From: a virus
Lineage: Duplodnaviria > Caudoviricetes
Length of the DNA: 60,355 nt
Reading direction: 5' to 3' (one strand)
Virus record (IMG/VR): IMGVR_UViG_3300028920_000077
Coordinates: 1 to 60,355 of that record
The position numbers and the translations under genes were made by a program. Each line of letters begins with the position of its first letter. Position 1 is the stretch's first letter. The notes below the pieces were generated by a model, which worked only from the letters and a program-made list of their open reading frames with translations, was not told where the DNA came from and searched no databases. This document shows positions 22,443 through 51,247 of the stretch, piece by piece.

Positions 22443-23983
22443 TAAGCTAACCTTTTCCAGTAATATTCATCATCATATCCATCAAACCTAACGTGAGTAT
22501 CAGAATTTATATGTTGTATCTCTTGGAAATCAATTCCTGAACCAGTATCAGGGTTATATAAATCTTTAACTGTATCTGCTAAGTCAGGGCTTCTTCCTAT
22601 TCTACTCTTTAAATCTTTCTTTTTCTCTAATTGTATCCTGCCATTATTAGATACAAAATATCTAATTGACAATTCTTCTTTCAAATCTCTTATTAATTTC
22701 TTATGATGTGGTTTGTAAAAATAAGGGTATAAATCTACATTACTTTTCTCAGCTAAAGTTCTTAAATTCCAATAATAATGAGCCCTGCGATTTATAAACT
22801 CTTCGTTATATGGTTTGATCGCAGTTCTGTTTGCTATCATTGGAATCACATTATAGCCTTCGTGTAATAAATTATCATAACAGCCCTTACCTTCATGCCT
22901 AGCATCACAAAAATTAATTAAATCTTTCGGGTTTGCTATCCTCAGTCTCCTGGCATATTCCCGAGTTTTTTCTATAGTTAATTGTGTTGCTTTGTGGGTA
23001 TCTACCCTACCAGCATAAATATCTATATCCATTAACCTTGACCCTGCTCTACTTGCCCATGCATTGCAGTCCAAACCTTCACCAGCAAAATCTGTTGCCA
23101 TGAAGGGATAATCAAAGTCTGGATCAGCAATTCCCTTAAACATACTGTTTATTAAGGCATTACTCAACACAATCATTTCACCACTATCTACAAATTTAGC
23201 AAGTATCATCATTTGATACATAGGATCTTTCGGGTTCCACAATTCCATTTTTTCTTTATACCATTCATAACTTAATAGACCTGGAATTACTTCTCTTTTA
23301 AGTTTAACATTAGGAACATCTTTGGCAGTAATCTTTATAGTATTCCATTTCCCAAAATCTGTTTTTCTGTCAGGAAGAACTATATTGGCAAATTCACTAC
23401 CAATTTCATAAGGGTTGCTACATGCTATCATTCTGGTTTTGCCAGAAGTCATAATACCCTCTACAGATTCCCAAGTTTCCCTTGTTAATCCAGAAGCCTG
23501 ATCCATTATGATTAAGATATATTTATTGTGGTAACCAGTTCCTTTTGATTGAGTTGAAGTTCCTTTCTGTTCTCTAGCTACATAACCCACTCCGAAATGT
23601 TTTGGACTAATTTGTAATTTTGGGATAGAGAGAGGTTGACCAAGTAGTTTGACAGTAGCATTGCGATATATCTCTCTTATCTCTGCCCAAACTTGTTCAT
23701 TAACCTGCCTCATAACATTTGAAGTTGTTATGACAGTTGAAGGGAAAAAACTGTTTATAAACCAACAAAATAATAAACCTAATAAAAATGTTTTGCCAGT
23801 ATCATTAACAGATATAACAGCAGTACGCTTGTTATACCTGACTGATTTGACAATCTCTCGTTGCTTGGCATAAAGTCTATATGGTGTATGAGTATGTATC
23901 CACCAGATAGGATTATTCCTACAAGCATGAATATACTTTAAATATTTTTGCTTATTGCGAATATATCCCATTTCTTCATACAT
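22442..23983 (-). CDS. terL: Terminase large subunit
   Basis: Walker A variant NDTGKT, IIMDQA, CSNP, nuclease TDFA and GRSPDLAD motifs. Confidence 0.92.
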   Translation of the reverse strand: MYEEMGYIRNKQKYLKYIHACRNNPIWWIHTHTPYRLYAKQREIVKSVRYNKRTAVISVNDTGKTFLLGLLFCWFINSFFPSTVITTSNVMRQVNEQVWAEIREIYRNATVKLLGQPLSIPKLQISPKHFGVGYVAREQKGTSTQSKGTGYHNKYILIIMDQASGLTRETWESVEGIMTSGKTRMIACSNPYEIGSEFANIVLPDRKTDFGKWNTIKITAKDVPNVKLKREVIPGLLSYEWYKEKMELWNPKDPMYQMMILAKFVDSGEMIVLSNALINSMFKGIADPDFDYPFMATDFAGEGLDCNAWASRAGSRLMDIDIYAGRVDTHKATQLTIEKTREYARRLRIANPKDLINFCDARHEGKGCYDNLLHEGYNVIPMIANRTAIKPYNEEFINRRAHYYWNLRTLAEKSNVDLYPYFYKPHHKKLIRDLKEELSIRYFVSNNGRIQLEKKKDLKSRIGRSPDLADTVKDLYNPDTGSGIDFQEIQHINSDTHVRFDGYDDEYYWKRLA

Positions 23984-24585
23984 TAAAAATCAAAACTCTC
24001 CTCAGATAAGTCATCATCAAACTCTATATTGCCAATAGATTCTATTATGCCTTGTAAAGTTGAGTTGACAACTTGTTCTTCACGTTTTTGTTCATCACCA
24101 CATTCAACCCTGGCTTGTTTAATTAATTCTACAATTTCCATGTTTGCCTTTGCTGCAACTCTCAAGTCAGGTGGTTTTACGTTTTCTATAACTTTTATTC
24201 TACCTATTTTTTTCTTTAAAGCAGCAGGACTAGATGCAACCATCACAGTCATCTTCTCTTTACTTGGCTTCAATGCTGCTGATCTGATTTGTTTATGCTC
24301 TTTTATACTTGTTTCTATTTCATCCATTCTGTGATAAGAATTAGCATACTTAAAGAACTTGCCAAGGTTTTTATTTGTCTTTTCTCTAATTTTCAATATT
24401 TGTTCTTTCACTTCGGGATCTTTATATTTTTTTCTAACTGTTTTTACATCAAATAAAATTCCGAAGTTGTCATCAATATAAGATATTATATCCTCATCTT
24501 CATAGAATTTCGCCTTCAAATACATCAGTGTTTCCAATACTTCGCCTCTAAGTAGCTTTTGGTTCTTCTTTTTATAACTTGACAT
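23983..24585 (-). CDS. Terminase small subunit (putative)
   Basis: 200 aa, directly upstream of terL, first gene after a promoter. Confidence 0.65.
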   Translation of the reverse strand: MSSYKKKNQKLLRGEVLETLMYLKAKFYEDEDIISYIDDNFGILFDVKTVRKKYKDPEVKEQILKIREKTNKNLGKFFKYANSYHRMDEIETSIKEHKQIRSAALKPSKEKMTVMVASSPAALKKKIGRIKVIENVKPPDLRVAAKANMEIVELIKQARVECGDEQKREEQVVNSTLQGIIESIGNIEFDDDLSEESFDF

Positions 24586-24599
24586 AATACCTCCATTTT

Positions 24600-24631
24600 A
24601 TATATATAGATAACTTATTAAAAAAGTCAAG
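24600..24631 (-). promoter_or_regulatory. Sigma70-type promoter for the packaging/virion operon
   Basis: TTGACT-N16-TATATA, followed by the GGAGG RBS of the terS candidate. Confidence 0.7.
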
Positions 24632-24642
24632 TAAAAAATGTA

Positions 24643-24682
24643 AAAAAAAAGGGCAACCAAAATTTAAGTTGCCCCAGTTTTT
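24643..24682. terminator. Bidirectional intrinsic terminator
   Basis: A-tract, GGGCAAC...GTTGCCC stem, T-tract. Confidence 0.75.
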
Positions 24683-24707
24683 ATTATCGCTATTTAATTA
24701 GTTATTT

Positions 24708-25974: not shown

Positions 25975-26225
25975 CCTCTTGATTTTTTTATTCTATTTCT
26001 TATATTATTCCATTGTGGTAATTTCCTGCCACATTGTGGACAGAATCTAAACTTATGTAACATATATTTGTAGTTATTATTTAAATGCCTAGGCTCTAAC
26101 ATCGGACAGCCCTCAGCAGAATTAAAAGAATATAACTTTACAAAACCATAATGTAGGAATAATATACAAGCATTACCTCTCTTGCCACAACTCATATTTT
26201 TAACTTCTTTCTTATCCAGTTCCAT
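25929..26225 (-). CDS. Small Cys-rich protein
   Basis: FCPQCG zinc-ribbon motif. Confidence 0.5.
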   Translation of the reverse strand: MELDKKEVKNMSCGKRGNACILFLHYGFVKLYSFNSAEGCPMLEPRHLNNNYKYMLHKFRFCPQCGRKLPQWNNIRNRIKKSRGWITEQRRTVWTKKD

Positions 26226-27310
26226 ATAGCTTTTATAATTGTTTCTTTTATGGAAGTTTTTGTTTCTGACTCTTCTGTTTCTTTTTCTATTATGTATATA
26301 GGCTTAAGCTGTGTTGGCTCTGTGGCACAATCCCAAACTTCGTCTATATGAATATTATAATAATGCTCATAAGCTAACCATAAACCACCATTAAAACCGA
26401 CTATATCACAGTATGAATATTCTGCAACTTCACTTTCAAATTCTTTATTATCATCTTTTAGCTCATCAACTATTTTATGTAACTTTATTTTCTTGCCAGA
26501 GTTGGTGGTAAATGCAACAAATACAGTCTCTTCACCATCAACATAAATTCTAGCCCAACTATCTATACCCTTAACTACATAATTTACAGCATCTAATTCA
26601 AGAGTACGTGCTTGTTTAGTTTCTATATCATAAGTGAATAGATATTGTGTATGATCTTTCTTATCATCTCTAAATGTTACAATAAAAGCATGGTATAATA
26701 TTCCATTTTTAAATACCATAGAACCTTCTGAAACAGTATAGGTGTCATCTGTTGGTTTTGGTATTATTACAGCATAATTATCTAAGAAATTTTTAATCAT
26801 ACCAGCCTCATTTGCACATCTATAGCTAACAAACATTTGGCTGATATCATTTATTTGCCATTCTTTTGGGCCTTCGTATATGGTTTGTTTCTGTTTTTTT
26901 ATACAATCAAAAATTTCTATTTTATAGTGTTTCTTTTTAGACCAACAGGCATAAGCACACATAGGTGCATCAAATCCCGAATCTATCCTGACAGTGTTAA
27001 TTATATAACCACCAGCATGGATTTGAGTTTCTTCTATAATATCATCTTGGTCTATATCAAATACTATCAATGCCAACTGTTCACAATTATAAAAATCAGG
27101 ATTACCATATACTATGTAAATTTTATTACTATAATTATCAAAGGCACATTGTGGTCTGTTAAACCTGTTATCAACAGGTCTTGAAATAAAAACCTTTTCC
27201 GTTACTATCTTCTTTTCTTTATTCCAGACTTTTAGTGATAATTTGTTATGAGTTAAATAGCATAAAGCTAAATATTTATCATTTGCTGCTAAACTTGGAT
27301 GTGTCTCCAT
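26192..27310 (-). CDS. Hypothetical protein, possibly beta-propeller
   Basis: 372 aa, AGGAG RBS, repeated beta-strand units (KIYIVY, ILYHAF, VFVAF, LWLAY). Confidence 0.6.
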   Translation of the reverse strand: METHPSLAANDKYLALCYLTHNKLSLKVWNKEKKIVTEKVFISRPVDNRFNRPQCAFDNYSNKIYIVYGNPDFYNCEQLALIVFDIDQDDIIEETQIHAGGYIINTVRIDSGFDAPMCAYACWSKKKHYKIEIFDCIKKQKQTIYEGPKEWQINDISQMFVSYRCANEAGMIKNFLDNYAVIIPKPTDDTYTVSEGSMVFKNGILYHAFIVTFRDDKKDHTQYLFTYDIETKQARTLELDAVNYVVKGIDSWARIYVDGEETVFVAFTTNSGKKIKLHKIVDELKDDNKEFESEVAEYSYCDIVGFNGGLWLAYEHYYNIHIDEVWDCATEPTQLKPIYIIEKETEESETKTSIKETIIKAIWNWIRKKLKI

Positions 27311-27376
27311 TTTTTCTCCTTAATCTTAATGCAGAAAATAAGGCATAAATTAAAAAAAATATCCCCAACATTTCTA

Positions 27377-27733
27377 TCATAATTGTTTCCTTTGTTCTAT
27401 AGTTAAATCTAATATTTCAGCCAAAGCATTTAATTTTTGGCTTTTCCAAATATCTTTTTTTATTTTCCGTTTTGGGATCTTCATTACACATGAATTTCTG
27501 AATACTTCATAAACAAGAAATTCTTTAACAGGATATTGGACATATTGCTGTTCATTAGGTATAAATCCAATCTCATATTGCTGTCTCATTCTTTTATAAT
27601 ATTTGTCTCTTATATAAATAAGACATTCGGTATAGGTAGTGAAATATCGCATGGAACATTCTCTAATAAAACCATTGCATTTTCTACAAACAATGTAATG
27701 TCTATTAGCAAATATTTCATTTTCGTCTTGCAT
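27377..27733 (-). CDS. Hypothetical protein (CxxC)
   Basis: 118 aa with RBS. Confidence 0.55.
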   Translation of the reverse strand: MQDENEIFANRHYIVCRKCNGFIRECSMRYFTTYTECLIYIRDKYYKRMRQQYEIGFIPNEQQYVQYPVKEFLVYEVFRNSCVMKIPKRKIKKDIWKSQKLNALAEILDLTIEQRKQL

Positions 27734-27902
27734 TTAATTCTCCTTTTTGTTTCCTTTTCAATCTACACCAATCAGGTGTTTCGGGATAATTTTTTATAAT
27801 CCTTTCTGTGAAGCCACTATAAAAATTATCGCAAGTATGTGTTATATCATCAAAAAAATCATATTCATGATGATGTTTACAGCTTTTGCAGGTCAATAGC
27901 AT
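27717..27902 (-). CDS. Small Cys4 protein (CxxC...C...PxWCxL)
   Basis: Same cysteine pattern as 40643..40828 and 44479..44685. Confidence 0.6.
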   Translation of the reverse strand: MLLTCKSCKHHHEYDFFDDITHTCDNFYSGFTERIIKNYPETPDWCRLKRKQKGELNARRK

Positions 27903-27933
27903 ATTTTTTTCTCAGAGGGAACATTTTTTCATC

Positions 27934-28221
27934 CTAATTCTTTTTACTCTCAAATAATAAATCTCTTACTTGATCCAATTCGGGCATTGGTTTGTGCCAT
28001 TTATCCCAAACCTCGCACATTCTCTTTTCTAATTCTTTTGGATCATATTTGGCTTCATACATATAATTAGCATCTTCGTTAAGTTCATCAAGAAATTTAT
28101 CTGGCTCACAAACCTGTGGTTTAGTTAAGATATCAAGTTCATTCATTATTTTTTTATTCCTTAAAAGTTTCCTTTTTTTCTTTTTATCCCTTTTCCTGCT
28201 CTTTTTCTTTCTTTTACCCAT
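27934..28221 (-). CDS. Hypothetical protein with basic N-terminus
   Basis: 95 aa ORF in operon. Confidence 0.5.
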   Translation of the reverse strand: MGKRKKKSRKRDKKKKRKLLRNKKIMNELDILTKPQVCEPDKFLDELNEDANYMYEAKYDPKELEKRMCEVWDKWHKPMPELDQVRDLLFESKKN

Positions 28222-28280
28222 TGGACATCACCCTACACTTTCTTTTTGATAAAAGATTAAAAGATATAATACAGAAAAGT

Positions 28281-31200
28281 TTATATTTCATTATTAACTC
28301 CATAGTATTTATTTGTTTTTGTTATCTTTTCATTATTTTTTCTCTTCACCTTTTGTATCAATGCATTGATGTAGTTCTCTGCAATTCCAACTTTGCTAGA
28401 AACTGCACTTGCAGTATCAAATCTTTTTTCTATGCTAAAACATCTAGTTTGTTTATTATCAATTTCCTTTGTTTTCTGTTTTGTTTCTACGACTAAATTA
28501 ACTAATTGCGAGAGCTTTGTTTTTGTTAGCGGGAAGTCTGGTTTATTTTCAAGAAAATAATCCATCATATCATTTGGGTTGTATTCATCCTTATCGGCTA
28601 TATATTCCCTAATCTCTTCTAATAACCTATATTCATAGAATGAAATATCAACAGCGATATAGCTTAAATCTACCTTTTCCATTATATTCCTATTAACAAA
28701 ATGTTTAATTATTTTAAGTTTGTTATTGACTTTGCGTGTACTTTCTTGAGCTAATTTCAATAAATCCTTTTCATTTTGTTCATCTATGCAACTCTTCATT
28801 TTATGTAACTTAACATAGTTTTTTAACATTTTCAAGTCAATTATATGATTATTATTTTTATAATATTCTTCTAATGTATTGGTAGGAATCATACTATGTT
28901 TTGGCTTTTGTGAGTATTTTTTATACTCAAAGGTGGCTAAAATAAGATTTTTTTCTGCATGAATACCATCATTTACCTTTACATATTCATTTTTATCTAT
29001 TTTTTCAGCTAATTCCTTGTTATAATTTTTGATTTTCTTTTTATTAGTTGCCCTTTTTTCTTTCAGTTCTTTTGTGATTTCTTCTTCTATGTTAATAGAA
29101 TTAATCTTTTGTTCACCCACACTCCAAGATTTATACATATCAGATAGAAAGAAAGGATTATTATAAATCTTTCTATAATATTTTCTCATAATATCTAGTC
29201 TAATCTGGAACTGATTCGGAATATATTTATACCCATCCCAAATAATATACTTATTTAGTATATTAATTTTTTTGAGTGCGATTAGATATTCTTCTTTGTA
29301 TTGATCAACTTCAAATTTTATGTTAGATACTAATTCTGCTTCCATTTTGTGTCTTGATAATAGGTTGCAATATTTTTTAATCTTTTTAATTCTATCCTTT
29401 ACCATTAATGTATAGTTATCTAAATCATTCAGTTCTTTATTATTTCTATATAACACATATATTTTATCACAGCCATGCCTAAATCTACTCAGAAATTGCT
29501 TTTGTAAATGTGGTAAATCTTGAGATAGCATAACTATGTTATATCCTTTATCATTAATTGAAATACCTTCTGCTATAACTTGTGTTGTAAAAAGGATATC
29601 AAGGTTTTCTGGTAAACAATTATGTTTAATGATATGTTTATAAATATCAGTATGTTTCAGATCTCTGTTCAATTTTCCAACAGATTTATTTATTTTTTTT
29701 CTAATCAAATCTGTTAGCATATTGATATCATTCCTGTTATTAAGTAATACTATAGTTTTATTTTTGCTCTGCTTTACTATTTGATATATTGCTTCTAGCT
29801 TCTTTTCATAAGCAATGACATTCACTTCAGTATTTTCAAATGGATTATGTTCTCTTTCTATTTCTATAACTGGATCATCTCCGAAAACACCATAATGAGT
29901 TCCAGTTAAGTAAACAAAGTTTGGGAATTTTTCTTTACATTCCATTATGAATTTAAGTGCTTTAAACCTGTAATCATTAGATGTTAGTAGATTATGTGCC
30001 TCATCCATAATCACAATCCAATTGTTAAAGTCTATGTCACATTTGGTTACTTTTTTTAAGCCCTCGTAGGTGGTAGTGATAACTTTATTACCATTATTGA
30101 TCATTGTTTTGACTTCATTTTCACAAACAAATCCGTCTATGTATGGTATTTCATATTGGTTGGATGTTTGTGAATTGGTTGCCATTAAACTTTGTAATAC
30201 TAATATTCTTTTATCAGTATATTCTGGCAAGTCTTTGATAACCAGCTTTGTTTTACCAACACCCGTAGGTGCAACGATAATTGTATGTTTATGTCCTAGT
30301 ATATGGTTACATATTTCTTCTTTCTTCTCGCTCAACCATTTATTAACTTTTATCTTTGTTGTTTTTTTATTGAAGATTTGTTTAAAATATTCTTTATTTT
30401 TTGTAAGGGTGTAATGGTACAGAACTGGATCTTTTTGTTTTAATACTTGGCTTAATGTATATATTGTCTGATCATGATGGTCAGTAGCCAAGTAAGAATT
30501 TTTATATAAACACATTGAATAATTTAAATCAGGTGCATGAAAGGGGCAACCAATACTCAGGTAACTAGGGTATTCTTTATATTTAATCTTAAACTTCATT
30601 AAAAGGTTGTGGATTGAGTCTTTTTTAAGGAGGGATTTTGTTGATTTGAGGGTTTTTTTATCATACTTACTTATGTAATTACCCTTACGTATTAGTTGCC
30701 TCAGAACGTGTTTCTTTTTATGTTTATTTTTTCTTTTAATATTTTTTAATTTCAAATTTAATTTTGGTGGGATATATTTAATCACAGGATCATTTAATAT
30801 CTTTTCAATGAAGCTAGTTATTAATTCGCTATCTATTACAGGTGCAAAATCAATATCTCCGTATAGTTTATATTCTTTTATTTCACCTAATTTATTTATA
30901 ACTTTAGAAGGTGAAACTGCTAAAAGAGAATTTTGCCCTCTTAGTTCAACCTTAAAAGGTTCTATTATTTTTCTTAGGAACACTTCTTCATTCTTAATTT
31001 TGTTCTTTGATATTACTAATATGTCATCTTTAATGGATGGTTTAAAGTCCAAGAGATCAAATATTTTACTTTCTATAAATGAATTAAATTTTTTATTTGT
31101 TTTAATTATATAACAATCATCCATCTCAGTAACTTCTTTAACTGGACAGGTGCAATTTGCTATGATTGTTTTATAATTCTCTGTGCAAGCAAATAAAATA

Positions 31201-31484
31201 TGTTTGCCACCACTGGGTGATTCTTGATAAACTAAGTTATCTTTACCAGTATGTTTTTTGAAAAGTTCAAATATATATTCCTTAACCACTGGATCATAAA
31301 TATCTATATCTATTGCATATAATTTTTCTATTTCACCCTCTCCAAGCCTAATAGACCTGTTCCCAGTATAAGTTTTAGGGAGTTTTCTGCTTGTTGGTAT
31401 GTATCTAGGGTCTAATTTACTATTCCAAATTTCAATAGGGATTTTCTTATTATTTGTTTTGATTTCTGTATATACTATGCTCAT
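28281..31484 (-). CDS. Primase-polymerase / Zn-finger / SF2 helicase fusion
   Basis: IDID and ESPSGGKH (prim-pol), CPFH, APTGVGKT, MDEAH, LTGT, EGISI and QFLSRFR motifs. Confidence 0.85.
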   Translation of the reverse strand: MSIVYTEIKTNNKKIPIEIWNSKLDPRYIPTSRKLPKTYTGNRSIRLGEGEIEKLYAIDIDIYDPVVKEYIFELFKKHTGKDNLVYQESPSGGKHILFACTENYKTIIANCTCPVKEVTEMDDCYIIKTNKKFNSFIESKIFDLLDFKPSIKDDILVISKNKIKNEEVFLRKIIEPFKVELRGQNSLLAVSPSKVINKLGEIKEYKLYGDIDFAPVIDSELITSFIEKILNDPVIKYIPPKLNLKLKNIKRKNKHKKKHVLRQLIRKGNYISKYDKKTLKSTKSLLKKDSIHNLLMKFKIKYKEYPSYLSIGCPFHAPDLNYSMCLYKNSYLATDHHDQTIYTLSQVLKQKDPVLYHYTLTKNKEYFKQIFNKKTTKIKVNKWLSEKKEEICNHILGHKHTIIVAPTGVGKTKLVIKDLPEYTDKRILVLQSLMATNSQTSNQYEIPYIDGFVCENEVKTMINNGNKVITTTYEGLKKVTKCDIDFNNWIVIMDEAHNLLTSNDYRFKALKFIMECKEKFPNFVYLTGTHYGVFGDDPVIEIEREHNPFENTEVNVIAYEKKLEAIYQIVKQSKNKTIVLLNNRNDINMLTDLIRKKINKSVGKLNRDLKHTDIYKHIIKHNCLPENLDILFTTQVIAEGISINDKGYNIVMLSQDLPHLQKQFLSRFRHGCDKIYVLYRNNKELNDLDNYTLMVKDRIKKIKKYCNLLSRHKMEAELVSNIKFEVDQYKEEYLIALKKINILNKYIIWDGYKYIPNQFQIRLDIMRKYYRKIYNNPFFLSDMYKSWSVGEQKINSINIEEEITKELKEKRATNKKKIKNYNKELAEKIDKNEYVKVNDGIHAEKNLILATFEYKKYSQKPKHSMIPTNTLEEYYKNNNHIIDLKMLKNYVKLHKMKSCIDEQNEKDLLKLAQESTRKVNNKLKIIKHFVNRNIMEKVDLSYIAVDISFYEYRLLEEIREYIADKDEYNPNDMMDYFLENKPDFPLTKTKLSQLVNLVVETKQKTKEIDNKQTRCFSIEKRFDTASAVSSKVGIAENYINALIQKVKRKNNEKITKTNKYYGVNNEI

Positions 31485-31511
31485 TTTCCACGTTTCCTTT
31501 CATGTTGTTCT

Positions 31512-31547
31512 TAATATATATATAAGTTTTTTTTTAAAAAAAGCAAG
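31512..31547 (-). promoter_or_regulatory. Sigma70-type promoter for the primase-helicase operon
   Basis: TTGCTT followed by TATATA at promoter spacing, upstream of 31484. Confidence 0.55.
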
Positions 31548-31576
31548 TAAAAAAAAATATATTTTTTAAATTAAAC

Positions 31577-31605
31577 TTGACATTTTATAGGAAATGGATT
31601 ATATA
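31577..31605 (+). promoter_or_regulatory. Sigma70-type promoter with no downstream ORF
   Basis: TTGACA-ttttataggaaatggat-TATATA, nearly identical to the promoter at 38405-38433. Confidence 0.8.
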
Positions 31606-31610
31606 TATAG

Positions 31611-31685
31611 TAATCCTTTGTTTGTTAGATTTTAATGGTTGATTTTAAAAAGCCCCTAGAGAAGAAACTTTAGGGGCTTTTGGTT
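31611..31685 (+). ncRNA. Candidate small RNA antisense to the AACAAAGGA RBS motif
   Basis: Bounded by the 31577 promoter and the 31647-31688 terminator. Its 5' end is TAATCCTTTGTTTGTTAGATT. Confidence 0.55.
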
Positions 31686-31688
31686 TTT
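31647..31688. terminator. Bidirectional intrinsic terminator
   Basis: AAAAAGCCCCTAGA...TTTAGGGGCTTTT. Confidence 0.8.
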
Positions 31689-31691
31689 ATA

Positions 31692-31943
31692 CTATTTATT
31701 AACAGTCTTAGTATCAAATATTAAATCCAAATTCTTTTCTATTTTGTTTAGTGTGCTTTCATTTTTAATCTCAAATGTAAACATTAACAATCCTGTTTTA
31801 CTGTCTTTGTTTTTCATATTGGTAACTATCATTATAGAACATTTATCCCTTTCTTTAAGTGGAGTAAATGCTTTGATACAATCTATAGCTACATTGGTTC
31901 TTCTACCATCTTTATCTATAAATTTAATGAATTTCGGTTTCAT
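31692..31943 (-). CDS. Hypothetical protein
   Basis: 83 aa, last gene before the terminator. Confidence 0.55.
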   Translation of the reverse strand: MKPKFIKFIDKDGRRTNVAIDCIKAFTPLKERDKCSIMIVTNMKNKDSKTGLLMFTFEIKNESTLNKIEKNLDLIFDTKTVNK

Positions 31944-32472
31944 TACCTGTCCTTCCTATAAAATTTTTGATTATATTAAATATATTCTTGGGTTGTGCCT
32001 GATAAACTTTCCAGCCTTCTCTTTGTGCTAAGTTAAACTTTTCCATATCCTTTAGGTAGCCACTAACTGATTGATGCCAGCCACCCTGATAAACTCCACC
32101 CTGAACCTCAATAGATTCCATTATCTCAACATAAGCTATGTCTAATCTGAATTGTCTATTTCTTATAAACTTCAATTCAAACACTGGACTTGGTAAACCA
32201 TGTTCTAGGGAATATTGGATTATTAAGTTTGGATTATACCATTTTGAAGGTTTTACTTTAATATAATAATCCTGGTTAATGCTCTTGATATGGTTAGATT
32301 TTATATATTTTTTCCTTCCTTCCTTTATTAGATATTTGCTATCCTTTAACCACTTCAAGATAGTATTCCTGCCTAACAAATAGGCATCTTCTATTTCTTT
32401 GATGTTTGCCAACTTATCGGTTTCATTTTGCATTTCGATGAATAGTTCTTTTTGTTTCATGTTTTTCACCAA
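31924..32472 (-). CDS. PD-(D/E)XK endonuclease with N-terminal HTH-like region
   Basis: FRLDIAY..IEVQGG...DMEKFNLAQREGWKV motif. Confidence 0.75.
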   Translation of the reverse strand: MVKNMKQKELFIEMQNETDKLANIKEIEDAYLLGRNTILKWLKDSKYLIKEGRKKYIKSNHIKSINQDYYIKVKPSKWYNPNLIIQYSLEHGLPSPVFELKFIRNRQFRLDIAYVEIMESIEVQGGVYQGGWHQSVSGYLKDMEKFNLAQREGWKVYQAQPKNIFNIIKNFIGRTGNETEIH

Positions 32473-32651
32473 CCATAACCATCACCAGAACCATCACCAT
32501 AACCATAACCAGCCCCATCACCAGAACCATCACCATAACTAAAACTAGAACCATAACCATAACCATAACCAGAATCATCACCAGCCCCAGAACTAGAACT
32601 AGAACCATAACCATAACCATTGTAGATCATATTGTTTATTATTTTTTCCAT
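32466..32651 (-). CDS. Gly-rich repeat peptide 1 (leader MEKIINNMIYNGYG)
   Basis: GAGG RBS; GGT-NNT hexamer repeats; overlaps the end of its partner gene. Confidence 0.7.
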   Translation of the reverse strand: MEKIINNMIYNGYGYGSSSSSGAGDDSGYGYGYGSSFSYGDGSGDGAGYGYGDGSGDGYGW

Positions 32652-33001
32652 TGTTTCACCTCGCTTATAGATTTTATCGCTTGAGATGTACAGGGGATAA
32701 CTTCTATTGCATCCAATATAATAATCTTTGGAATCCATACGCTAAACTTACAATTTTCAGGTTTTATTGTTCCTTCTAATGCTAATTGATGCAAAGAGAA
32801 AGCACCATCCCAATACCAAATTCGCCTAGAAGTTAGTAATGTTACTTCTCTATTTTTTCTATTATCTATTTGCCCAAAAAAAACCCCAGACCTATCTCCT
32901 CTAATCAATACAAACTTATCATCTACCTCAACCTTTTTCAAAGTAGATTTCTTGACATAAACTTCGTTATTAATAGTTATTTCATCTAAATTTACTTCCA
33001 T
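32639..33001 (-). CDS. Conserved phage protein, copy A (DUF6948-like, recalled rather than searched)
   Basis: IRGDRSGVFFG...RRIWYWDGAFSLHQLALEG...LDAIEVIPCT. Confidence 0.75.
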   Translation of the reverse strand: MEVNLDEITINNEVYVKKSTLKKVEVDDKFVLIRGDRSGVFFGQIDNRKNREVTLLTSRRIWYWDGAFSLHQLALEGTIKPENCKFSVWIPKIIILDAIEVIPCTSQAIKSISEVKQWKK

Positions 33002-36027: not shown

Positions 36028-36284
<257 letters not shown>

Positions 36285-36297
<13 letters not shown>

Positions 36298-36647
36298 GGT
36301 TCTATCCCAGAGATAGAATCTATAGCTTTTTTGGTGCAAGGGATTACTTCTATTGCATCTAAGATAAAGATTTTAGGTAGCCAAACAGTAAATTTACAGT
36401 TTTCTGGTTTAGATGTCCCTTCTAATGCTAATTGATGCAAAGAGAAAGCACCATCCCAATACCATAGCCTTCTTGAATTTAGTAAGATTACTTCTCTATC
36501 TTTTCTTTGATCTAATTTACCAAAGAAAACACCAGATCTATCACCTCTAATAATGACATAATTCTCATCTATTTCTGGTTTCTTCAAACTTGTTTTCTTT
36601 ACATAAACTTCGTTGTTAATTGTAATTTCATTTAATGTTGCTTCCAT
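36285..36647 (-). CDS. Conserved phage protein, copy B (DUF6948-like)
   Basis: True start MEATLNEITINNEVYVKK after an AGGAG RBS; close paralog of 32639..33001. Confidence 0.75.
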
Positions 36648-36687
36648 TGTTTTTCTCCTTATTAGTTTTTTTGTATATTGTTTCTTA

Positions 36688-37032
36688 CTAACCCGAACCC
36701 GAACCATTTTGTGATCCAGAAAAACTGACACCCGAACCCGAACCATAACCGTTACCTCCACCATCACCATAACCTCCACCATAACCTCCACCATCACCAT
36801 AACCTCCACCATAACCTCCACCATCACCAGAACCATCACCATCACCAGAACCATCACCATCACCATGACCCCAATTACCACCGCAACCATCACCATTATC
36901 ATAACCCGAACCCCCCCAACTAGAACCATCACCACATCCATTACCATAACCAGAACTAAAACTAGAACCATAACCACAATATTCACCCCAACCATAACCA
37001 TTATAGATTATATTTGCTATTATTTTTTCCAT
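36688..37032 (-). CDS. Gly-rich repeat peptide 3 (leader MEKIIANIIYNGYG)
   Basis: GAGG RBS; contains Cys and Trp in the Gly-rich core. Confidence 0.7.
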   Translation of the reverse strand: MEKIIANIIYNGYGWGEYCGYGSSFSSGYGNGCGDGSSWGGSGYDNGDGCGGNWGHGDGDGSGDGDGSGDGGGYGGGYGDGGGYGGGYGDGGGNGYGSGSGVSFSGSQNGSGSG

Positions 37033-37040
37033 TATCTACC

Positions 37041-38075
37041 TCAACTTTTCTTTATATAATTGAGTTTCTTTTTACCTTTCAATTCGTTATTCCACATGTC
37101 TGTCCAGTTTTTTAACATTAGTTTCGCTGTGTTGTCTTCTAATGTTTTAAATCCCATTTTCTTTAGTTGTCCTAATACATTATATAACCAATGTAATTGT
37201 TGATCTGTCAACTTAGAGTATCTTTCGTTGCCAAACAAAACACCAGCAGTGTCATACTTGAGCTGTTCGGGTAAATTTATAGAAGTTATAACTTCTGCAC
37301 ATTCTTCTTGGCTCAAACTCAAGACAACTTCTGGATAATTTTTAGATTTTCTAGCTTCCAATTCAGTAACTAATTGAGATTGTTGCTGCTGTGTCATTTC
37401 ATTCCAAGCATAAGTCTCATTGAATATTTTTTTCATAACTTGCTTAACATAATCTTTATTCAATCCTTCTGCTAAAAGTTTATTCATTTTTTGAAGGTTA
37501 TTCAGTTGAATTGGTTGCTGTGTTTCAGTTGGTTTATAGTTTTGTGGTTTTTGTTGCTCTTGTTGCCCTTTTTTCTTATCTTCTGGATAGTTACCATCAC
37601 CATCAAATTCGTCTTCAGTAGCAATATTGAAGGCATGGATTAACCCATATTTTCTTCCATAGGTTGCTGCAATTTGGACAGATTTTTCATTGAGTGTATT
37701 TTTGAATTGATGTCTTGCAACGCCCTTACATATAGTAACTATTTCTATTGGTGAGCCATCTTCTTTTTTATTAAAACCATCTACTACATGAACAGCCATT
37801 TTTGTTTCTTTGAAAGTTTTTGTTTCATCCAACCCATCGTCAACAATCTCTGCATAACAATAAATCCCCAATATACCACAAGCCTTGTTCACTTCTTTAA
37901 TTACATCTTCAACCTTCACGAATTTGTAATTTTTATCACTGTTATACTTGTCTTTGTATTCTCCTTTTTTTTGTATCATTGGGATAAGTGTTTGTGCCAA
38001 AGAAAGCCTACTTTCAAAACTTTCCTTCTTGAGTGTTTCTCTTATTTCCAATAGTTCTTTCAACCTTTCTAACAT
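37041..38075 (-). CDS. ERF-family single-strand annealing protein
   Basis: NYKF and AATYGRKYGLIHAFNIATEDEFDG signature. Confidence 0.85.
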   Translation of the reverse strand: MLERLKELLEIRETLKKESFESRLSLAQTLIPMIQKKGEYKDKYNSDKNYKFVKVEDVIKEVNKACGILGIYCYAEIVDDGLDETKTFKETKMAVHVVDGFNKKEDGSPIEIVTICKGVARHQFKNTLNEKSVQIAATYGRKYGLIHAFNIATEDEFDGDGNYPEDKKKGQQEQQKPQNYKPTETQQPIQLNNLQKMNKLLAEGLNKDYVKQVMKKIFNETYAWNEMTQQQQSQLVTELEARKSKNYPEVVLSLSQEECAEVITSINLPEQLKYDTAGVLFGNERYSKLTDQQLHWLYNVLGQLKKMGFKTLEDNTAKLMLKNWTDMWNNELKGKKKLNYIKKS

Positions 38076-38313: not shown

Positions 38314-38344
38314 TTTTTGCCTCCTTGCTATGATTTTTTATCCT

Positions 38345-38433
38345 ATTATATATATAAAACATCATTTTGAATTTGTCAAGGGTTAAAAAAAATATTTTTA
38401 TCCCTTGACATTTTATTAAAAATGTATTATATA
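38345..38433. promoter_or_regulatory. Divergent sigma70-type promoter pair
   Basis: Minus strand: TTGACA (38374-38379)-N17-TATATA. Plus strand: TTGACA (38405-38410)-N17-TATATA (38428-38433). Confidence 0.85.
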
Positions 38434-38473
38434 AATAATAACACTAACCAATAAACAACAAAGGAGATTTAAA

Positions 38474-45586: not shown

Positions 45587-46001
45587 ATTTATAATGGAAA
45601 AGCTAAGAAAATATAGACAATTCTTAGATATTGAAAAAGCACCTGTAAAATATAAAAAGAAATGTTCCAGGTGTTTATCATTCTTTGAAAATGTATATCT
45701 ATTTGATGAAGAAAGTGATATCGTAGATATATCTGCTTTCCTCAGAACTGAATATCATAGCTTAAATCTGAAGTATAAAGAGACAAATAATAAAAAACAT
45801 TTAGAAAAGGCAAGGGAAATTAAACTAAATTTGAAGTATATCTCTGAAAGATTTGCAATTGATTTAGTTCAGGATTTACTGAAAATTAGGGATCATTGTA
45901 ATTACAGAAATAGAAATATTCCTAAACATAAAAGATATAACTTTCAATCCAGGAACAAATCACAGGTGAAGTCTAAAGCAACTTGGAAACAAATAGACTA
46001 A
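45570..46001 (+). CDS. Hypothetical protein (CxxC)
   Basis: Last gene of the rightward arm. Confidence 0.55.
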   Translation: MKMKLKFIMEKLRKYRQFLDIEKAPVKYKKKCSRCLSFFENVYLFDEESDIVDISAFLRTEYHSLNLKYKETNNKKHLEKAREIKLNLKYISERFAIDLVQDLLKIRDHCNYRNRNIPKHKRYNFQSRNKSQVKSKATWKQID

Positions 46002-46115
46002 ACCGTTTCTTTACATGTCTCCATGGGTTAATTTTAAAAATTTAATTTCTGTAACTACATATCCATATAATGATTTTCTTATATAAGGAACTACTTATAT
46101 AATGGAGTGGATATT
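46000..46115 (+). repeat. Composite non-coding repeat, copy 1
   Basis: AACCGTTTCTTTACATGTCTCCATG...ATATCCATATAA...CTTATATAAG boxes. Confidence 0.85.
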
Positions 46116-46185
46116 ACTTTACTCTATTTATAAGGTATTTTTCAAATTTACATACAATTCTCCTATTAAGGTTTTTGGTAGAAAT

Positions 46186-46222
46186 AAAAAAAAAGGACTT
46201 AACTTATTTAGCTAAGTCCTTT
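46186..46222 (-). terminator. Intrinsic terminator of the inverted cassette
   Basis: AAAGGACTTA...TAAGTCCTTT with a long T-tract on the minus strand. Confidence 0.8.
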
Positions 46223-46236
46223 AATGTTTTTATAAT

Positions 46237-46404
46237 TTAAATATTTGTTTTTAATCTTTCGATTAATTTTACTCTTAAAACCGCCCATACTGGACACCCT
46301 TCACTTTTACAAACCATGTCTATTGCAATATCTGAATTCCTTGCAATAACTATTATATTGAATTCTCCAGAATCGCTCTGTAATATTACTTTAAACTTTC
46401 TCAT
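46237..46404 (-). CDS. Hypothetical protein (55 aa, not in ORF track)
   Basis: AAGGAG RBS; MRKFKVILQSDSGEFNIIV. Confidence 0.65.
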   Translation of the reverse strand: MRKFKVILQSDSGEFNIIVIARNSDIAIDMVCKSEGCPVWAVLRVKLIERLKTNI

Positions 46405-46760
46405 TATATTCTCCTTATTTTTGTAGGGTTGATAATCATTATTTCTTTTTTTGTTTGGATAGTTCTTTTATTAAATCTATTATTCCCTAATATACTACAA
46501 TCTACAATCTCTGAAATACTTGAATTAATATGTGTTATTTTTTTTCTTTGAATTCTTCTTTCATAAATAAATCTGTTATTTATTTTAGAATTATAATCAT
46601 ATCCAATACCAATACTTTTATGATTGAACTTTCCAAATGTTTTTGCAAATTGATCAACTTCATTGTCTTTAAACCAAATAATTATTCCACTTCCAAATTT
46701 TTCATAATGGAAGCCATACTTTTTACATTTTTTTACAATACTTCTTTGTAATTTATTCAT
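46404..46760 (-). CDS. Hypothetical protein
   Basis: Start MNKLQ after the CACTAACAAAGGAG RBS. Confidence 0.7.
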   Translation of the reverse strand: MNKLQRSIVKKCKKYGFHYEKFGSGIIIWFKDNEVDQFAKTFGKFNHKSIGIGYDYNSKINNRFIYERRIQRKKITHINSSISEIVDCSILGNNRFNKRTIQTKKEIMIINPTKIRRI

Positions 46761-46799
46761 TTTTTTTTCTCCTTTGTTAGTGTTTTTTAATACACCTTG

Positions 46800-46945
46800 A
46801 AACCGTTTCTCCAAACCGTTTCTCCAAACCGTTTCTTTACATGTCTCCATGAAAGTGTATTTTTTTTGTTATTTTTCTAATTAGATATCCATATAAGGAT
46901 TTTCTTATATAAGCAAGTCCTTATATAAGGATTTACTTATATATT
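46800..46945 (+). repeat. Composite non-coding repeat, copy 2
   Basis: Three tandem AAACCGTTTCT units, ACATGTCTCCATG, TTTTTTTGTTATTTTTCTAATTAGATATCCA and CTTATATAAG boxes. Confidence 0.85.
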
Positions 46946-47153
46946 GGATTGTTTTTTTATTCTTCCTTTTTTTTGTTTTTTTTTCTTTTTTTTCAACTTC
47001 AATTATAATTGAAGTATATTTTTTGATATATCCTATAACTTATTGATTTTTAATGATTTTTCTAATGAAATTTAATTAAATCTAAATTTCATTCTTACTT
47101 GTATAAATGCAAGTTAAAAACCTATTTTTTTAATATCTAAAATGATATTAAAA

Positions 47154-47221
47154 TGTGATATTTTAATCACAAGTGATATTTTAATCATTATATTTTTATC
47201 ACATGTAACAATTTAATCACA
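47154..47221. promoter_or_regulatory. Array of four TGTGAT-N6-ATCACA-like palindromes (candidate enhancer)
   Basis: Copies at 47154, 47172, 47186 and 47204, about 100-170 bp upstream of the sigma54 start. Confidence 0.7.
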
Positions 47222-47296
47222 TATTAGAAAATTATAAATAATTTATAATTGCTTGAATTTAAACCTTTTTCTTAAAAAATCAATAATTATAATTTT

Positions 47297-47313
47297 TGGG
47301 CATGTGAATTGCA
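47297..47313 (+). promoter_or_regulatory. Sigma54 (-24/-12) promoter 1
   Basis: TGGGCATG-TGAA-TTGCA; GG at 47299-47300 and GC at 47311-47312 are at canonical spacing. Confidence 0.72.
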
Positions 47314-47356
47314 TTTAGAAAGTAACCAAAAAAACACTAACAAAGGAGATAAAAAA

Positions 47357-47545
47357 ATGAGAAAAAAAAGAAGAAAACAAAGTAAGATATTTAATCATTC
47401 TAAAAAAAATGATATTTCAAGAAAAAAAATCCTTGAAAATATCAAATTATTTGAAAAAAGATTAAATCAAAGTACTGGACTTCTTTTCGATCTGTACTTT
47501 GAAAAATATGTATATTTTATTAACCTTTTGGAGGAGATATCATAA
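47357..47545 (+). CDS. Hypothetical protein
   Basis: CACTAACAAAGGAG RBS. Confidence 0.65.
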   Translation: MRKKRRKQSKIFNHSKKNDISRKKILENIKLFEKRLNQSTGLLFDLYFEKYVYFINLLEEIS

Positions 47546-47589
47546 AATTATCTATTGAAGAAAAAAAAGAATTAACAAAGGAGAAAAAT

Positions 47590-48057
47590 ATGAGTATAAA
47601 ACACTTAAAAGAATTAACAAAGGAGAAAAATATTTCAATTAATAAAATTCCAGATTCTTTTAAAATAGGATTTTTATTAATTGAAGAAAAAACAGACAAA
47701 GAAAATTTTCTTTATTGCATAAAAGAATTTAAAGAAAAAAGAAAAGATTCTTATCTGTTTAATATGTTTAACTTATTAATTAGAGGAAACATGCACTTAA
47801 AACATAATTTTATTAAAAGCAAGTTGAATAGAATAATTATTAAAAAGGACTTACTTAAAAAATTTTGTATTTTTCATTTTAAATTGATATGTTTAAAAAA
47901 CTGTAGAATAGAAGGAGATAAAACTTTAAATTATAGTTTTATTAGTAGAACTATAGACAAACAATTAAATAATAATGATATATCAATTTTAATGAATGAA
48001 ACAGACGATTTATATTATGAAATATACTTCGATTTAAGAGAAATTTTAAATGACTAA
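47590..48057 (+). CDS. Hypothetical protein
   Basis: TTAACAAAGGAG RBS, which is duplicated again inside the gene at about 47614. Confidence 0.65.
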   Translation: MSIKHLKELTKEKNISINKIPDSFKIGFLLIEEKTDKENFLYCIKEFKEKRKDSYLFNMFNLLIRGNMHLKHNFIKSKLNRIIIKKDLLKKFCIFHFKLICLKNCRIEGDKTLNYSFISRTIDKQLNNNDISILMNETDDLYYEIYFDLREILND

Positions 48058-48071
48058 CAAAGGAGAAAAAA

Positions 48072-48251
48072 ATGATAAGATTAGAAAATAAATTTGATAT
48101 TATAGAACTAAGTGAAGATTGTTTTACAAAATCTGAATTATTAGACATGTTTATTTTTTGGTTAGATCTCGGAGAAGTTGAAAGATGTTTTGAGGATTTT
48201 TTAAAAGAGCATGATCTAAAATTGAATCAAGAAAAATATATTATAGAATAA
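48072..48251 (+). CDS. Hypothetical protein (59 aa, not in ORF track)
   Basis: CTAACAAAGGAG RBS; MIRLENKFDIIELSED. Confidence 0.7.
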   Translation: MIRLENKFDIIELSEDCFTKSELLDMFIFWLDLGEVERCFEDFLKEHDLKLNQEKYIIE

Positions 48252-48281
48252 AAAAAACTAACACTAACAAAGGAGAAAAAA

Positions 48282-48476
48282 ATGAAAGTAGAATTTAATT
48301 TAAAAAATGTAAAAATTGTTAAATTTATAAAAATTAACCTAATCGAAGTAATTTTTTTGAACGGTGATACAACTTATTTAAAAAAAGGGAATTTTAAAAT
48401 AAGTTCATTTGTAATTTTTTATTTTAATTTATTGCAATCGATAGGAAGAAATTATTTTATCATTTGGTATAATTAA
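48282..48476 (+). CDS. Hypothetical protein
   Basis: CTAACAAAGGAG RBS. Confidence 0.65.
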   Translation: MKVEFNLKNVKIVKFIKINLIEVIFLNGDTTYLKKGNFKISSFVIFYFNLLQSIGRNYFIIWYN

Positions 48477-48501
48477 AAATAATCTAACAAAGGAGATCAA
48501 A

Positions 48502-48672
48502 ATGGATATAATTAAAAAAATCAATTTAGCTTTAAAAAGACTTGAAAAAAAAGGATATAAACATCATAAAAGTTATAAAAGACTTGAATTAAAAAAAGAA
48601 TTAATAAGAAAAGGATATCCTTTTAAACTAATTGAAATAAAAAAAGATTTTTTAAAAAATTTAGAAATTTAA
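48502..48672 (+). CDS. Basic hypothetical protein (56 aa, not in ORF track)
   Basis: CTAACAAAGGAG RBS; MDIIKKINLALKRLEKKGY. Confidence 0.65.
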   Translation: MDIIKKINLALKRLEKKGYKHHKSYKRLELKKELIRKGYPFKLIEIKKDFLKNLEI

Positions 48673-48698
48673 CTAACAAACAAACAAAGGAGAAAAAA

Positions 48699-49880
48699 AT
48701 GGAAAATCAAAATTTAACACTTAATGTTAATACTCAAGATTTAAAAGAAAGTTTAAACTATTTATCAAAATTTGAATTATATAAAAATCCTGTTTTATAC
48801 CTAAAAACTACTAAACATGGTATTGATTTAAGTATTTATTCAGTAAATTATAATATCCTAACATGTGAAATAATTTCAGATGTAATAAATGAAAATATAG
48901 AAGTTGAATTAAATTTTAAAAATTTTAAAAAACTTTTAAGTAAAATTAAACCTAAAGACTTTAAATTTATACAAAGTTTTTACATTCAAGAAAATTTTTT
49001 AATCCTTGAAATAACAAATAATATTAAGAAAAAAATTAAATGTAAAATTTCAACAAGACAAGTTGAAAAAGTTAATTATAATAAATTTGTGACCATTCCC
49101 ATTTCTTTATTTAATGATATCTTTGATCATTATAAATTATTGTTACAAGATTCTGAATATCTATTTTTTAAAAACTTACTTTTAAGAATTGAAAATAATA
49201 AATTAAATCTTGTTTTAACAAATGGATCTTTATTAACTTTAATTGAATATGAACATGAACATAATGAGAATATAGATCTTTTTTTACCTATAGAAGTGAT
49301 CAAAGTTCTTGAAAGTGTCAAACCTTTTAAACAATTTTTACTTAGTATGAAATATATAAAAGTAGAAAATGAAATATTTATTAATTTAAATTATGTAAAT
49401 GATAATATTACTTTAAACTTTCAAGTTAAAGTTGAAAAGTTCGATTATCCAGAATATCAAAAAGTTATCCCCCAAAAATACAATCATATTAATATTGAGA
49501 TAAATAAAAAGAATCTTTTAAAATATTTATCTGTTATAGATACAACTAAAGACAATGAAGGAATAACTTTAAATTTACTTAAAGATAAAATCATTATTAA
49601 AAATGATATTGATATGGAATATAAAACTGAAGTCATTATTGATAAAAATGATTTTAAATATTTTGATAGTTCAGGAGAAATACAAGATCAAAAAGGTATA
49701 AATGAATTTTTTGCATTAAATAAAAACTTATTTGAATTTTATTTAAAAACCTTAGAACTTGAAAAAGTTTTTATTAAATATTATGGTCATAGTTCCCCTC
49801 TTGTAATAAATGAAAATTTAGAAGAGGAGTTTTATAAGACTAAAAAATTAGTAATCATGCCCATGAGAGTAAATCACTAA
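48699..49880 (+). CDS. dnaN: DNA polymerase III beta sliding clamp-like protein
   Basis: 393 aa. LVLTNGSLL resembles VATDGHRL, DYPEYQKVIP resembles FPDY.RVIP, and it has SSPLVI and C-terminal VIMPMR. Confidence 0.8.
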   Translation: MENQNLTLNVNTQDLKESLNYLSKFELYKNPVLYLKTTKHGIDLSIYSVNYNILTCEIISDVINENIEVELNFKNFKKLLSKIKPKDFKFIQSFYIQENFLILEITNNIKKKIKCKISTRQVEKVNYNKFVTIPISLFNDIFDHYKLLLQDSEYLFFKNLLLRIENNKLNLVLTNGSLLTLIEYEHEHNENIDLFLPIEVIKVLESVKPFKQFLLSMKYIKVENEIFINLNYVNDNITLNFQVKVEKFDYPEYQKVIPQKYNHINIEINKKNLLKYLSVIDTTKDNEGITLNLLKDKIIIKNDIDMEYKTEVIIDKNDFKYFDSSGEIQDQKGINEFFALNKNLFEFYLKTLELEKVFIKYYGHSSPLVINENLEEEFYKTKKLVIMPMRVNH

Positions 49881-49890
49881 AATAAACACT

Positions 49891-49927
49891 AAAAAAAAGG
49901 GGGGCAACCCCTTAGGGGTGTCCTTTT
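49891..49927. terminator. GC-rich hairpin after the clamp gene
   Basis: AAGGGG-G-GCAA-CCCCTT preceded by an A-tract. An alternative stem ends in CCTTTT. Confidence 0.6.
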
Positions 49928-49963
49928 AAATTGATTTAAACCTTTTAGAAAGGATTTTAAAAA

Positions 49964-50209
49964 ATGTATAAATACAATCAGGAAGAAAAAAGAATGTTAG
50001 AAAAAAGAATTAAAGAAATTTTTGGAGATGAAATTTTTTTTTCAATAGAAAAAGGATTCATTAAATTAAATGTATCTGAACATGAAACAAATAAACAATT
50101 TAGCTTGAATTTAGGAAAATTAACCAAAAATCAATACTATGGATTATTAGATTTTCTAATAATGCTAATTGATTTTTATAAAATTATTGAAGTAAAGGAA
50201 GGTAAATAA
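49964..50209 (+). CDS. Hypothetical protein
   Basis: 81 aa with RBS. Confidence 0.6.
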   Translation: MYKYNQEEKRMLEKRIKEIFGDEIFFSIEKGFIKLNVSEHETNKQFSLNLGKLTKNQYYGLLDFLIMLIDFYKIIEVKEGK

Positions 50210-50472: not shown

Positions 50473-50500
50473 TTTTTTTTCATCTTTTTTCTTCTCAATT

Positions 50501-50534
50501 AAAGACTAGATTTTTTATCTAGTCTTTTTTTTTT
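50501..50534 (+). terminator. Intrinsic terminator of cassette 1
   Basis: AAAGACTAGA...TCTAGTCTTT followed by a long T-tract. Confidence 0.85.
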
Positions 50535-51170: not shown

Positions 51171-51247
51171 TTTTGTAATATCGGTATAATTTAGCTAAAA
51201 TATAGGAAATGGTATATAACACAATGTATTATGGAACAATTATAATT

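Follow-up and report, generated by a model that had tools for sequence, protein, structure and literature searches.

An orphan promoter-terminator unit carrying an inverted translation-initiation leader in an uncultured marine-sediment phage: a candidate base-pairing small RNA

Results

Genomic setting

The window, that is, the whole stretch of DNA analysed, was an IMG/VR virus record of 60,355 bases with a CheckV completeness of about 53%, from an uncultured phage of marine sediment; its GC content was 31%. The sequence occurred in two marine-sediment metagenome runs, both of DNA, with no RNA run listed among those that contain it: contigs of one run were identical to the window over 26000-32502, and the second run gave small contig pieces only within the examined stretch, with doubtful cover of 31485-31691. 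The phage genome was densely packed, with few gaps longer than 100 nt. Leftward genes (38313 to 422) encoded recombination and replication functions, then terminase, portal, head and tail, and a rightward run of genes began at 38474.

The candidate unit sat in a gap of 207 nt (31485-31691) between a gene of 1067 aa with SF2 helicase domains (28281-31484, minus strand) and an ORF of 83 aa (31692-31943, minus strand). The gene coordinates bore out the geometry described by the sequence-only reading, an earlier inspection of this DNA, in which the unit and the helicase-domain gene are transcribed divergently; all of its sequence statements were correct on re-check. The boundary at 31.6 kb retained approximately 100 nt more than the boundary at 24.6 kb, where about 10 nt separated the terminator from the next promoter, and the retention of some 100 nt despite dense packing was counted in favor of a small RNA (sRNA) being encoded at 31.6 kb.

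To the right of the gap, two ORFs (32466-32738 and 36285-37001, minus strand) were low in complexity and rich in Gly, Ser and Tyr. Contig depth over 36146-37213 was 264 to 805, compared with about 45 elsewhere, which points to similar repeats in other contigs of the same samples.

Promoters at the operon boundaries

By sequence match, the orphan promoter consisted of a -35 hexamer TTGACA (31577-31582, plus strand) and, after a spacer of 17 nt, TATATA (31600-31605) inside a (TA)5 run forming the -10 region (31600-31609), a layout also present at 24630 and 38379 on the minus strand and at 38405 on the plus strand. The distance from the -10 region predicted a transcription start at 31610-31613, with an uncertainty of about 3 nt. 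On the minus strand, the likely promoter of the helicase-domain gene (31514-31546; TTGCTT at 31546-31541, 16 nt, TATATA at 31524-31519) was an approximate mirror image of the orphan promoter, the inverted repeat 31511-31541/31583-31613 being 74% complementary. A tract of A and T only, AAAAAAAAATATATTTTTT (31547-31576), separated these two back-to-back promoters and resembled the tract between the 38379 (minus) and 38405 (plus) promoters.

The claim of near identity with the 38405 promoter held: both hexamers were identical, the spacers agreed at 13 of 17 positions, and BLAST aligned 31552-31613 to 38385-38441 with 77% identity. This paralogous promoter of the rightward operon (38404-38441, plus strand) is followed by a leader that carries AACAAAGGAG in sense orientation. 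The pattern CTTGAC-N17/18-TATATA occurred five times in the window (0.01 expected). Three copies headed operons (24630 and 38379 on the minus strand, 38405 on the plus strand), and the remaining two, 31577 and 24578, were on the plus strand and pointed at terminators. In silico, the candidate therefore had a promoter of its own. The -10 element TATATA lacks the final T usual in -10 hexamers, which counted against the sRNA reading.

The 24578 promoter (plus strand; CTTGACA-N16-TATATA), which the sequence-only reading had not mentioned, overlapped the first codons of a gene of 200 aa (23983-24585, minus strand) and shared one palindromic (TA)5 with the promoter of that gene (24631-24603, minus strand), the one that heads the packaging and structural genes. 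The 24578 promoter pointed at the terminator at 24650-24675, the two forming a unit at 24578-24690 (plus strand) with a predicted RNA of approximately 75 to 80 nt that has an A-rich arm and no anti-leader. Because this promoter faces a terminator without an anti-leader, such promoters may exist for another reason, which argues against the sRNA reading; antisense promoters at operon boundaries may have a role in cis in this phage, for example in competition, interference or insulation.

An operator-like palindrome, ACATTTT-N4-AAAATGT, was perfect at 38408-38425 in the spacer of the 38405 promoter and present with two mismatches in the orphan promoter (31580-31597). It was discarded as a candidate, its count in the window (4, against 2.6 expected) not being above chance.

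Consensus sigma-70-type promoters did not exceed chance between 44 and 53.6 kb. Intergenic arrays of the palindrome CTTATATAAG with 16-nt spacing were found at 46045-46116, 46869-46944 and 50813-50896, and a module of about 76 nt (CCGTTTCTCC ... TTTTTTTTGTTATTTTTCTAATTAGATATCCA) recurred at 45990, 46816 and 50665; arrays and module are possibly phage-specific promoter or regulator sites.

Hairpin, predicted transcript and reading frames

The strong terminator that had been proposed to close the unit was found as a hairpin of 14 pairs (31648-31681, plus strand) running into TTTTGGTTTTT, which consists of the closing TTTT of the hairpin and the first eight tail bases GGTTTTTA (31682-31689), the predicted 3' end of the RNA. 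The unit therefore ended in an intrinsic terminator on its own strand. The folding energy of the hairpin was -20.7 kcal/mol for plus-strand RNA and -17.4 kcal/mol for minus-strand RNA, its single non-Watson-Crick position being G-U in the former and C-A in the latter, and the tail was TTTTGGTTTTT on the plus strand versus TTTTTAAAAT on the minus strand, with the longer U-run on the plus strand. The terminator at 24.65 kb was opposite in bias (-10.7 kcal/mol on the plus strand, -14.8 kcal/mol on the minus strand). That hairpin and tail were better on the plus strand at 31.65 kb, unlike at 24.65 kb, suggests that plus-strand transcription arrives at 31.65 kb and stops there. From its position 10 nt past the stop codon of the 83-aa ORF, the same hairpin is clearly also predicted to terminate the upstream minus-strand operon, a second role that the sequence-only reading had overlooked.

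For the predicted RNA, of approximately 72 to 79 nt, the fold of 31612-31688 (-21.8 kcal/mol; z -2.6) left 36 nt unpaired, followed by the hairpin and the U tail. As had been stated, no ORF followed the promoter: none of at least 25 aa was present on the plus strand within 31612-31688, and the sole ATG opened 12 codons without an upstream ribosome-binding site, so the transcript would be non-coding. A small protein was discarded for the same two reasons (12 codons, ribosome-binding site absent), and a minus-strand gene with an unusual start was discarded because all frames stop within 13 codons.

The 24.6- and 31.6-kb boundaries were alike in their order of elements, a terminator, a plus-strand CTTGACA promoter facing it and the next minus-strand promoter, which favors a cis-acting boundary element in which the plus-strand promoter has its effect as a DNA element or because transcription takes place, the anti-leader content being incidental. 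Such an element might compete with or stimulate the helicase-gene promoter, cause collision with read-through from upstream, or direct OOP-like cleavage of read-through RNA. At 24.6 kb a single palindromic (TA)5 serves both promoters, whose use must be mutually exclusive; at 31.5 kb, 30 nt separate the two -35 hexamers, which lie back to back with arms that are mirror images, and the RNA would be fully complementary to any read-through transcript. The phage RNAs OOP of lambda (77 nt) and sar of P22 (68/69 nt) provide precedents of this size (PMC12197685). A boundary element leaves unexplained why the arm copies a leader whose best match is 20 kb away; moreover, no coding part of the upstream gene, whose ORF ends at 31692, lies within the RNA, and the weaker plus-strand hairpin of the 24578 unit makes the parallel imperfect. 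On balance, a cis-acting element is rather improbable.

The position directly upstream of a helicase-domain replication gene and beside 30 nt of pure A/T is also what might be expected of an origin-linked transcript, in which DNA replication would be primed or activated by the short RNA itself or by melting of the A/T tract; a primer role was once proposed for OOP, whose promoter has an effect on replication (PMC12197685). The locus has neither iterons or other repeats nor a skew turn, however, the terminator would halt the RNA ahead of any long template, and repeat-rich, origin-like DNA lies instead at 46.85-47.3 kb. A replication origin at 31.5 kb was accordingly rejected for want of iterons and a skew turn, and an origin-linked transcript is hardly credible. 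The intergenic region 46851-47308 is a better candidate for an origin or control region than the 31.5-kb locus; within this gap of 458 nt, three ATGTGATATTTTAATCACA-like 19-mers at 47153-47221 were operator- or iteron-like.

A shared leader motif and its genes

The RNA had been proposed to begin with the reverse complement of the phage leader AATCTAACAAACAAAGGATTA, and the sequence agreed (31611-31631). The core AACAAAGGA of this leader was present 15 times in the window (1.31 expected; shuffle maximum 4), and its occurrence as a common ribosome-binding motif was confirmed at the starts named earlier. Motif search placed ten of the 15 copies 6 to 9 nt upstream of the ATG with which an ORF begins (38457, 41100, 47339, 47574, 48056, 48266, 48486 and 48683 on the plus strand; 46778 and 25963 on the minus strand), four within ORFs or without a called gene, and one, an orphan, on the minus strand of the unit at 31622-31614. 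A repeat finder independently recovered the same leaders, including one 23-nt identical pair.

No paralogy was detected among the leader-sharing genes (14 proteins; best blastp E value 0.013 over 30 residues), and as these proteins are unrelated, gene duplication does not account for the common leader, whose retention for some other reason counted in favor of the sRNA reading. Most of the genes lay in a block of 20-24% GC at 46-52 kb. One product was a clamp-like protein (gene 48699-49880) that matched the PHROG family 'DNA polymerase processivity factor' (E 6e-8), and the others were small proteins that had no family match. GC content was 30-35% outside that block (46000-52000), which was dense in small ORFs without family matches and held most of the common AACAAAGGAG leaders. 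At 47563-47641, the leader AAAAGAATTAACAAAGGAGAAAAATAT of gene 47590 was repeated 42 nt downstream, within the first codons of the ORF.

Complementarity of the 5' arm

By fold and alignment, the unpaired 5' arm of the predicted RNA (31614-31646, plus strand) was an inverted leader copy, the minus strand reading AAAATCAACCATTAAAATCTAACAAACAAAGGA. The three homology blocks, 31552-31613 (copied promoter), 31614-31646 (leader in inverted orientation) and the hairpin, which begins at 31648, abutted with at most one spare base, a fit that counted in favor of the sRNA reading, so that the predicted RNA consists of seed and terminator and nothing else.

Read on the minus strand (31646-31614), the arm aligned to 51633-51661 (plus strand) at 27 of 29 bases with one 4-nt gap. 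This was its best non-self match in the whole window on both strands (score 37), and the score was attained by none of 300 shuffles against the start-site set and none of 40 against the whole window (maxima 35). The matched stretch contains the last codons and stop of a gene of 74 aa (51426-51650) and the ribosome-binding site of gene 51671 (138 aa), where the predicted pairing covers the GGA of GGAG. The best predicted target is thus the leader of gene 51671 and not the clamp gene, a complement that the sequence-only reading had missed. Around this junction, the plus strand carried small genes with good signals, at 51303 and at 51426-51650, running into 51671, and the long minus-strand ORF 51229-51519 was probably spurious.

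The 13-nt perfect match reported at the ribosome-binding site of the clamp-like gene was confirmed (48679-48691, plus strand). Contiguous Watson-Crick matches of at least 9 nt were found at 12 of 90 start sites, the longest being 13 nt at 48699, 12 nt at 51671 and 11 nt at 48502. In silico the arm is thus unpaired and complementary to start sites, as an accessible seed would be. Its sequence indicates a copy of a specific leader type and not a generic anti-Shine-Dalgarno string. Of the anti-Shine-Dalgarno sRNA proposed earlier, the anatomy stood (promoter, free arm, terminator, no ORF), and the generic character proved too broad, the arm leaving the last G of GGAG uncovered. The uncertainty of about 3 nt in the predicted start, with the anti-Shine-Dalgarno bases at nt 3-5, also counted against the sRNA reading.

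Pairing was ranked over 91 start sites with RNAcofold, as binding energy net of self-structure. The 51671 site ranked first (-25.0 kcal/mol) and the 48699 site gave -17.8 kcal/mol. The ten AACAAAGGA sites ranked 3, 4, 5, 6, 7, 8, 10, 11, 16 and 75 (Mann-Whitney P 3e-5), a ranking that is circular because the class was defined by a motif that the arm contains; the lowest of them was the site at 41115 (75 of 91). The class mean was -17.7 kcal/mol, compared with -8.9 ± 2.0 kcal/mol for single-base-shuffled arms, none of 60 being as good, and the best value was likewise reached by none of the 60. The arm bound weakly (-4.7 to -14.7 kcal/mol) to ten hand-picked control start sites, ordinary AAGGAG sites of structural genes.

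An RNAduplex-type test over 90 start sites showed no excess over dinucleotide shuffles: 44 of the 90 sites were at -12 or below, versus 40 ± 7 in shuffles, and the best energy was attained by 18 of 300 dinucleotide shuffles. The expectation that the AACAAAGGA genes would rank top against shuffled controls was borne out with RNAcofold and single-base shuffles; the enrichment test by duplex energy, over all 90 start sites, was negative against dinucleotide shuffles. In addition, 1,640 of 120,638 36-nt windows of the genome (1.36%, in 64 clusters) had 9-nt matches to no fewer start sites than the arm; judging by position, most of these are taken to be antisense to other ribosome-binding sites or T-runs. 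The 9-nt A/U-rich pairing was weak for most class members. Given the circular ranking, the null duplex test and the matching genome windows, complementarity alone cannot separate an sRNA from a leftover leader.

A leftover leader is the premise of the reading of the unit as a relic or by-product, in which the bidirectional promoter module at 38.4 kb was copied to a place beside a 33-nt piece of an intercistronic junction (the 3' end of one gene and the ribosome-binding site of its successor) whose gene has been lost. The plus-strand promoter may still fire in that case, with an RNA that has no selected function in trans. The strand opposite the unit carries the leader-like AAAGGA without a start codon or ORF: it follows an ordinary leader as far as GGA, where the promoter interrupts it. 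The complementarity is exactly that expected of a leftover minus-strand leader, and the arm aligns with a real gene junction, including a coding 3' end and stop codon. The resemblance of 31511-31613 to 38344-38441 suggests duplication, and the phage is mosaic-looking, with its distinct block of 20-24% GC at 46-52 kb. A relic would nevertheless require two clean joints, one exactly at the predicted start and one at the hairpin base, and it leaves the better plus-strand hairpin and U-tract unexplained; an abundant RNA with 27 nt of start-site complementarity would also probably act, 'intended' or not. A relic is judged somewhat unlikely.

Searches for relatives and RNA families

Searching 31000-32500 against phage records with blastn returned nothing, and tblastn with the helicase-domain protein matched only three Clostridioides phage helicases, at 25-29% identity. 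Scans of IMG/VR with the helicase-domain, major head, large terminase and SNF2-type helicase proteins, with the nearest protein relative and with a two-protein alignment detected no relatives, and no record there contained an exact copy of the 21-mer from the arm. Metagenome contigs yielded nothing with the helicase-domain protein or the shared promoter pattern, and GTDB genome contigs nothing with the two-protein alignment. A search of 5.8 billion proteins with the helicase-domain protein returned only the query itself, and the best match among 1.84 billion representative proteins was 31% identical. One contig of the second sediment run had a 3-nt insertion (GCA) at 31447, in the N-terminal part of the helicase gene, which indicates a near-identical phage variant in another sample.

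In the whole window, Rfam 15 detected three tRNAs and no other family at the gathering score. A permissive Rfam scan of 31400-31800 gave at best 25 bits, against a cut-off of 49 bits, all matches being terminator-like. Three consecutive tRNA genes were located at 58347-58741 (minus strand).

Discussion

Proposed mode of action

The unit is real as a sequence and far from chance, its motifs, fold and complementarity being directly visible in the DNA. The reading put forward, tentatively and short of even confidence, is that it encodes a new base-pairing sRNA with the 51671 start as main target and with the clamp gene and the AACAAAGGA class as more weakly bound ones. The near copy of the 38405 promoter, which is of host type (TTGACA-17-TATATA), would start transcription at about 31610-31613, and the bidirectional hairpin at 31648-31681 with its U-tract would stop it, giving the RNA of about 72 to 79 nt. 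Its first 36 nt would be unpaired, nt 3-35 being the inverted translation-initiation leader. If the promoter fires from this start point and the RNA accumulates, it would be expected to pair with mRNA leaders, cover AAAGGA of the ribosome-binding site, hinder 30S loading and so repress translation by canonical sRNA occlusion; this canonical mode would make the novelty of the proposed RNA modest.

Three tiers of targets are predicted. The strongest would be the junction ahead of gene 51671, where three helices give 27 pairs, followed by the clamp-like gene 48699 (13 contiguous pairs), and the weakest would comprise eight AACAAAGGA sites (47357, 47590, 48072, 48282, 48502, 38474 and, on the minus strand, 46760 and 25947). 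The RNA has the promoter type of the 38405 operon, whose first gene, 38474, is a proposed target, and this common promoter type is a poor fit to a simple timed shut-off. If real, the sRNA would act in trans on several genes of the very phage that encodes it, regulating them by way of a common start-site leader, and the three abutting blocks would show unusually clearly how an sRNA gene arises from existing parts.

A stronger version holds that the unit is a newborn sRNA gene made by modular assembly, in which a duplicated early promoter, an inverted start-site junction and a pre-existing operon terminator were joined, with later tuning of the terminator for the plus strand, the product being a class-wide RNA brake on AT-rich small early genes and the clamp gene. 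This version is decidedly doubtful; if true, the RNA would be a counterpart of T4 RegA/RegB in a lineage without known relatives. Should the unit prove to be a relic or a boundary element, it still defines a promoter family and antisense promoters that face terminators at both internal boundaries.

Comparison with known systems

Among bacterial multi-target sRNAs, RybB, OmrA/B and RsaE/RoxS direct a 5' or loop seed against ribosome-binding sites. The candidate would share with them an unstructured seed, a U-tailed intrinsic terminator and targets with a common start-site motif; however, sRNAs of that kind are encoded by hosts, show conservation between species and often depend on a chaperone, whereas candidate and targets are phage-encoded and no homologues were found. 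In phage T4, the repressor RegA and the nuclease RegB are proteins that act on early-gene start sites. Their class-wide action through ribosome-binding regions offers a functional analogy only, since the effectors are proteins.

The sar RNA of P22 is encoded opposite its target, and the c4 RNA of P1 and P7 is released by processing of the operon transcript that also carries its target, and it regulates a single operon. The candidate differs from sar in that its opposite strand carries no gene and its proposed targets are several, 7-20 kb away, and from c4 in being a separate promoter-terminator unit directed at a multi-gene leader class. It would resemble sar as a small phage RNA of similar size with its own promoter that prevents translation by pairing at a ribosome-binding region (that of ant for sar), sar being listed as trans in the table of PMC12197685, and c4 in using short segments that pair around the ribosome-binding site, to the same effect and off its own antisense strand (PMC12197685).

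With lambda OOP the candidate would have in common a short length, a constitutive-looking promoter, an orientation against operon flow beside replication genes, and a terminator end (PMC12197685). OOP extends across the 3' end of cII and works in cis via RNase III, whereas the candidate overlaps only terminator and spacer; the gene overlap typical of cis-antisense RNAs of the OOP or sar type is absent, the nearest gene ending at 31692, beyond the RNA. Many phage ncRNA candidates have been described (PMC10914365), and the passages considered in PMC12197685 and PMC10914365 describe no phage RNA that acts on a class of the phage's own leaders. By analogy, the closest known systems would be sar and c4 in mechanism, and lambda OOP in position and size.
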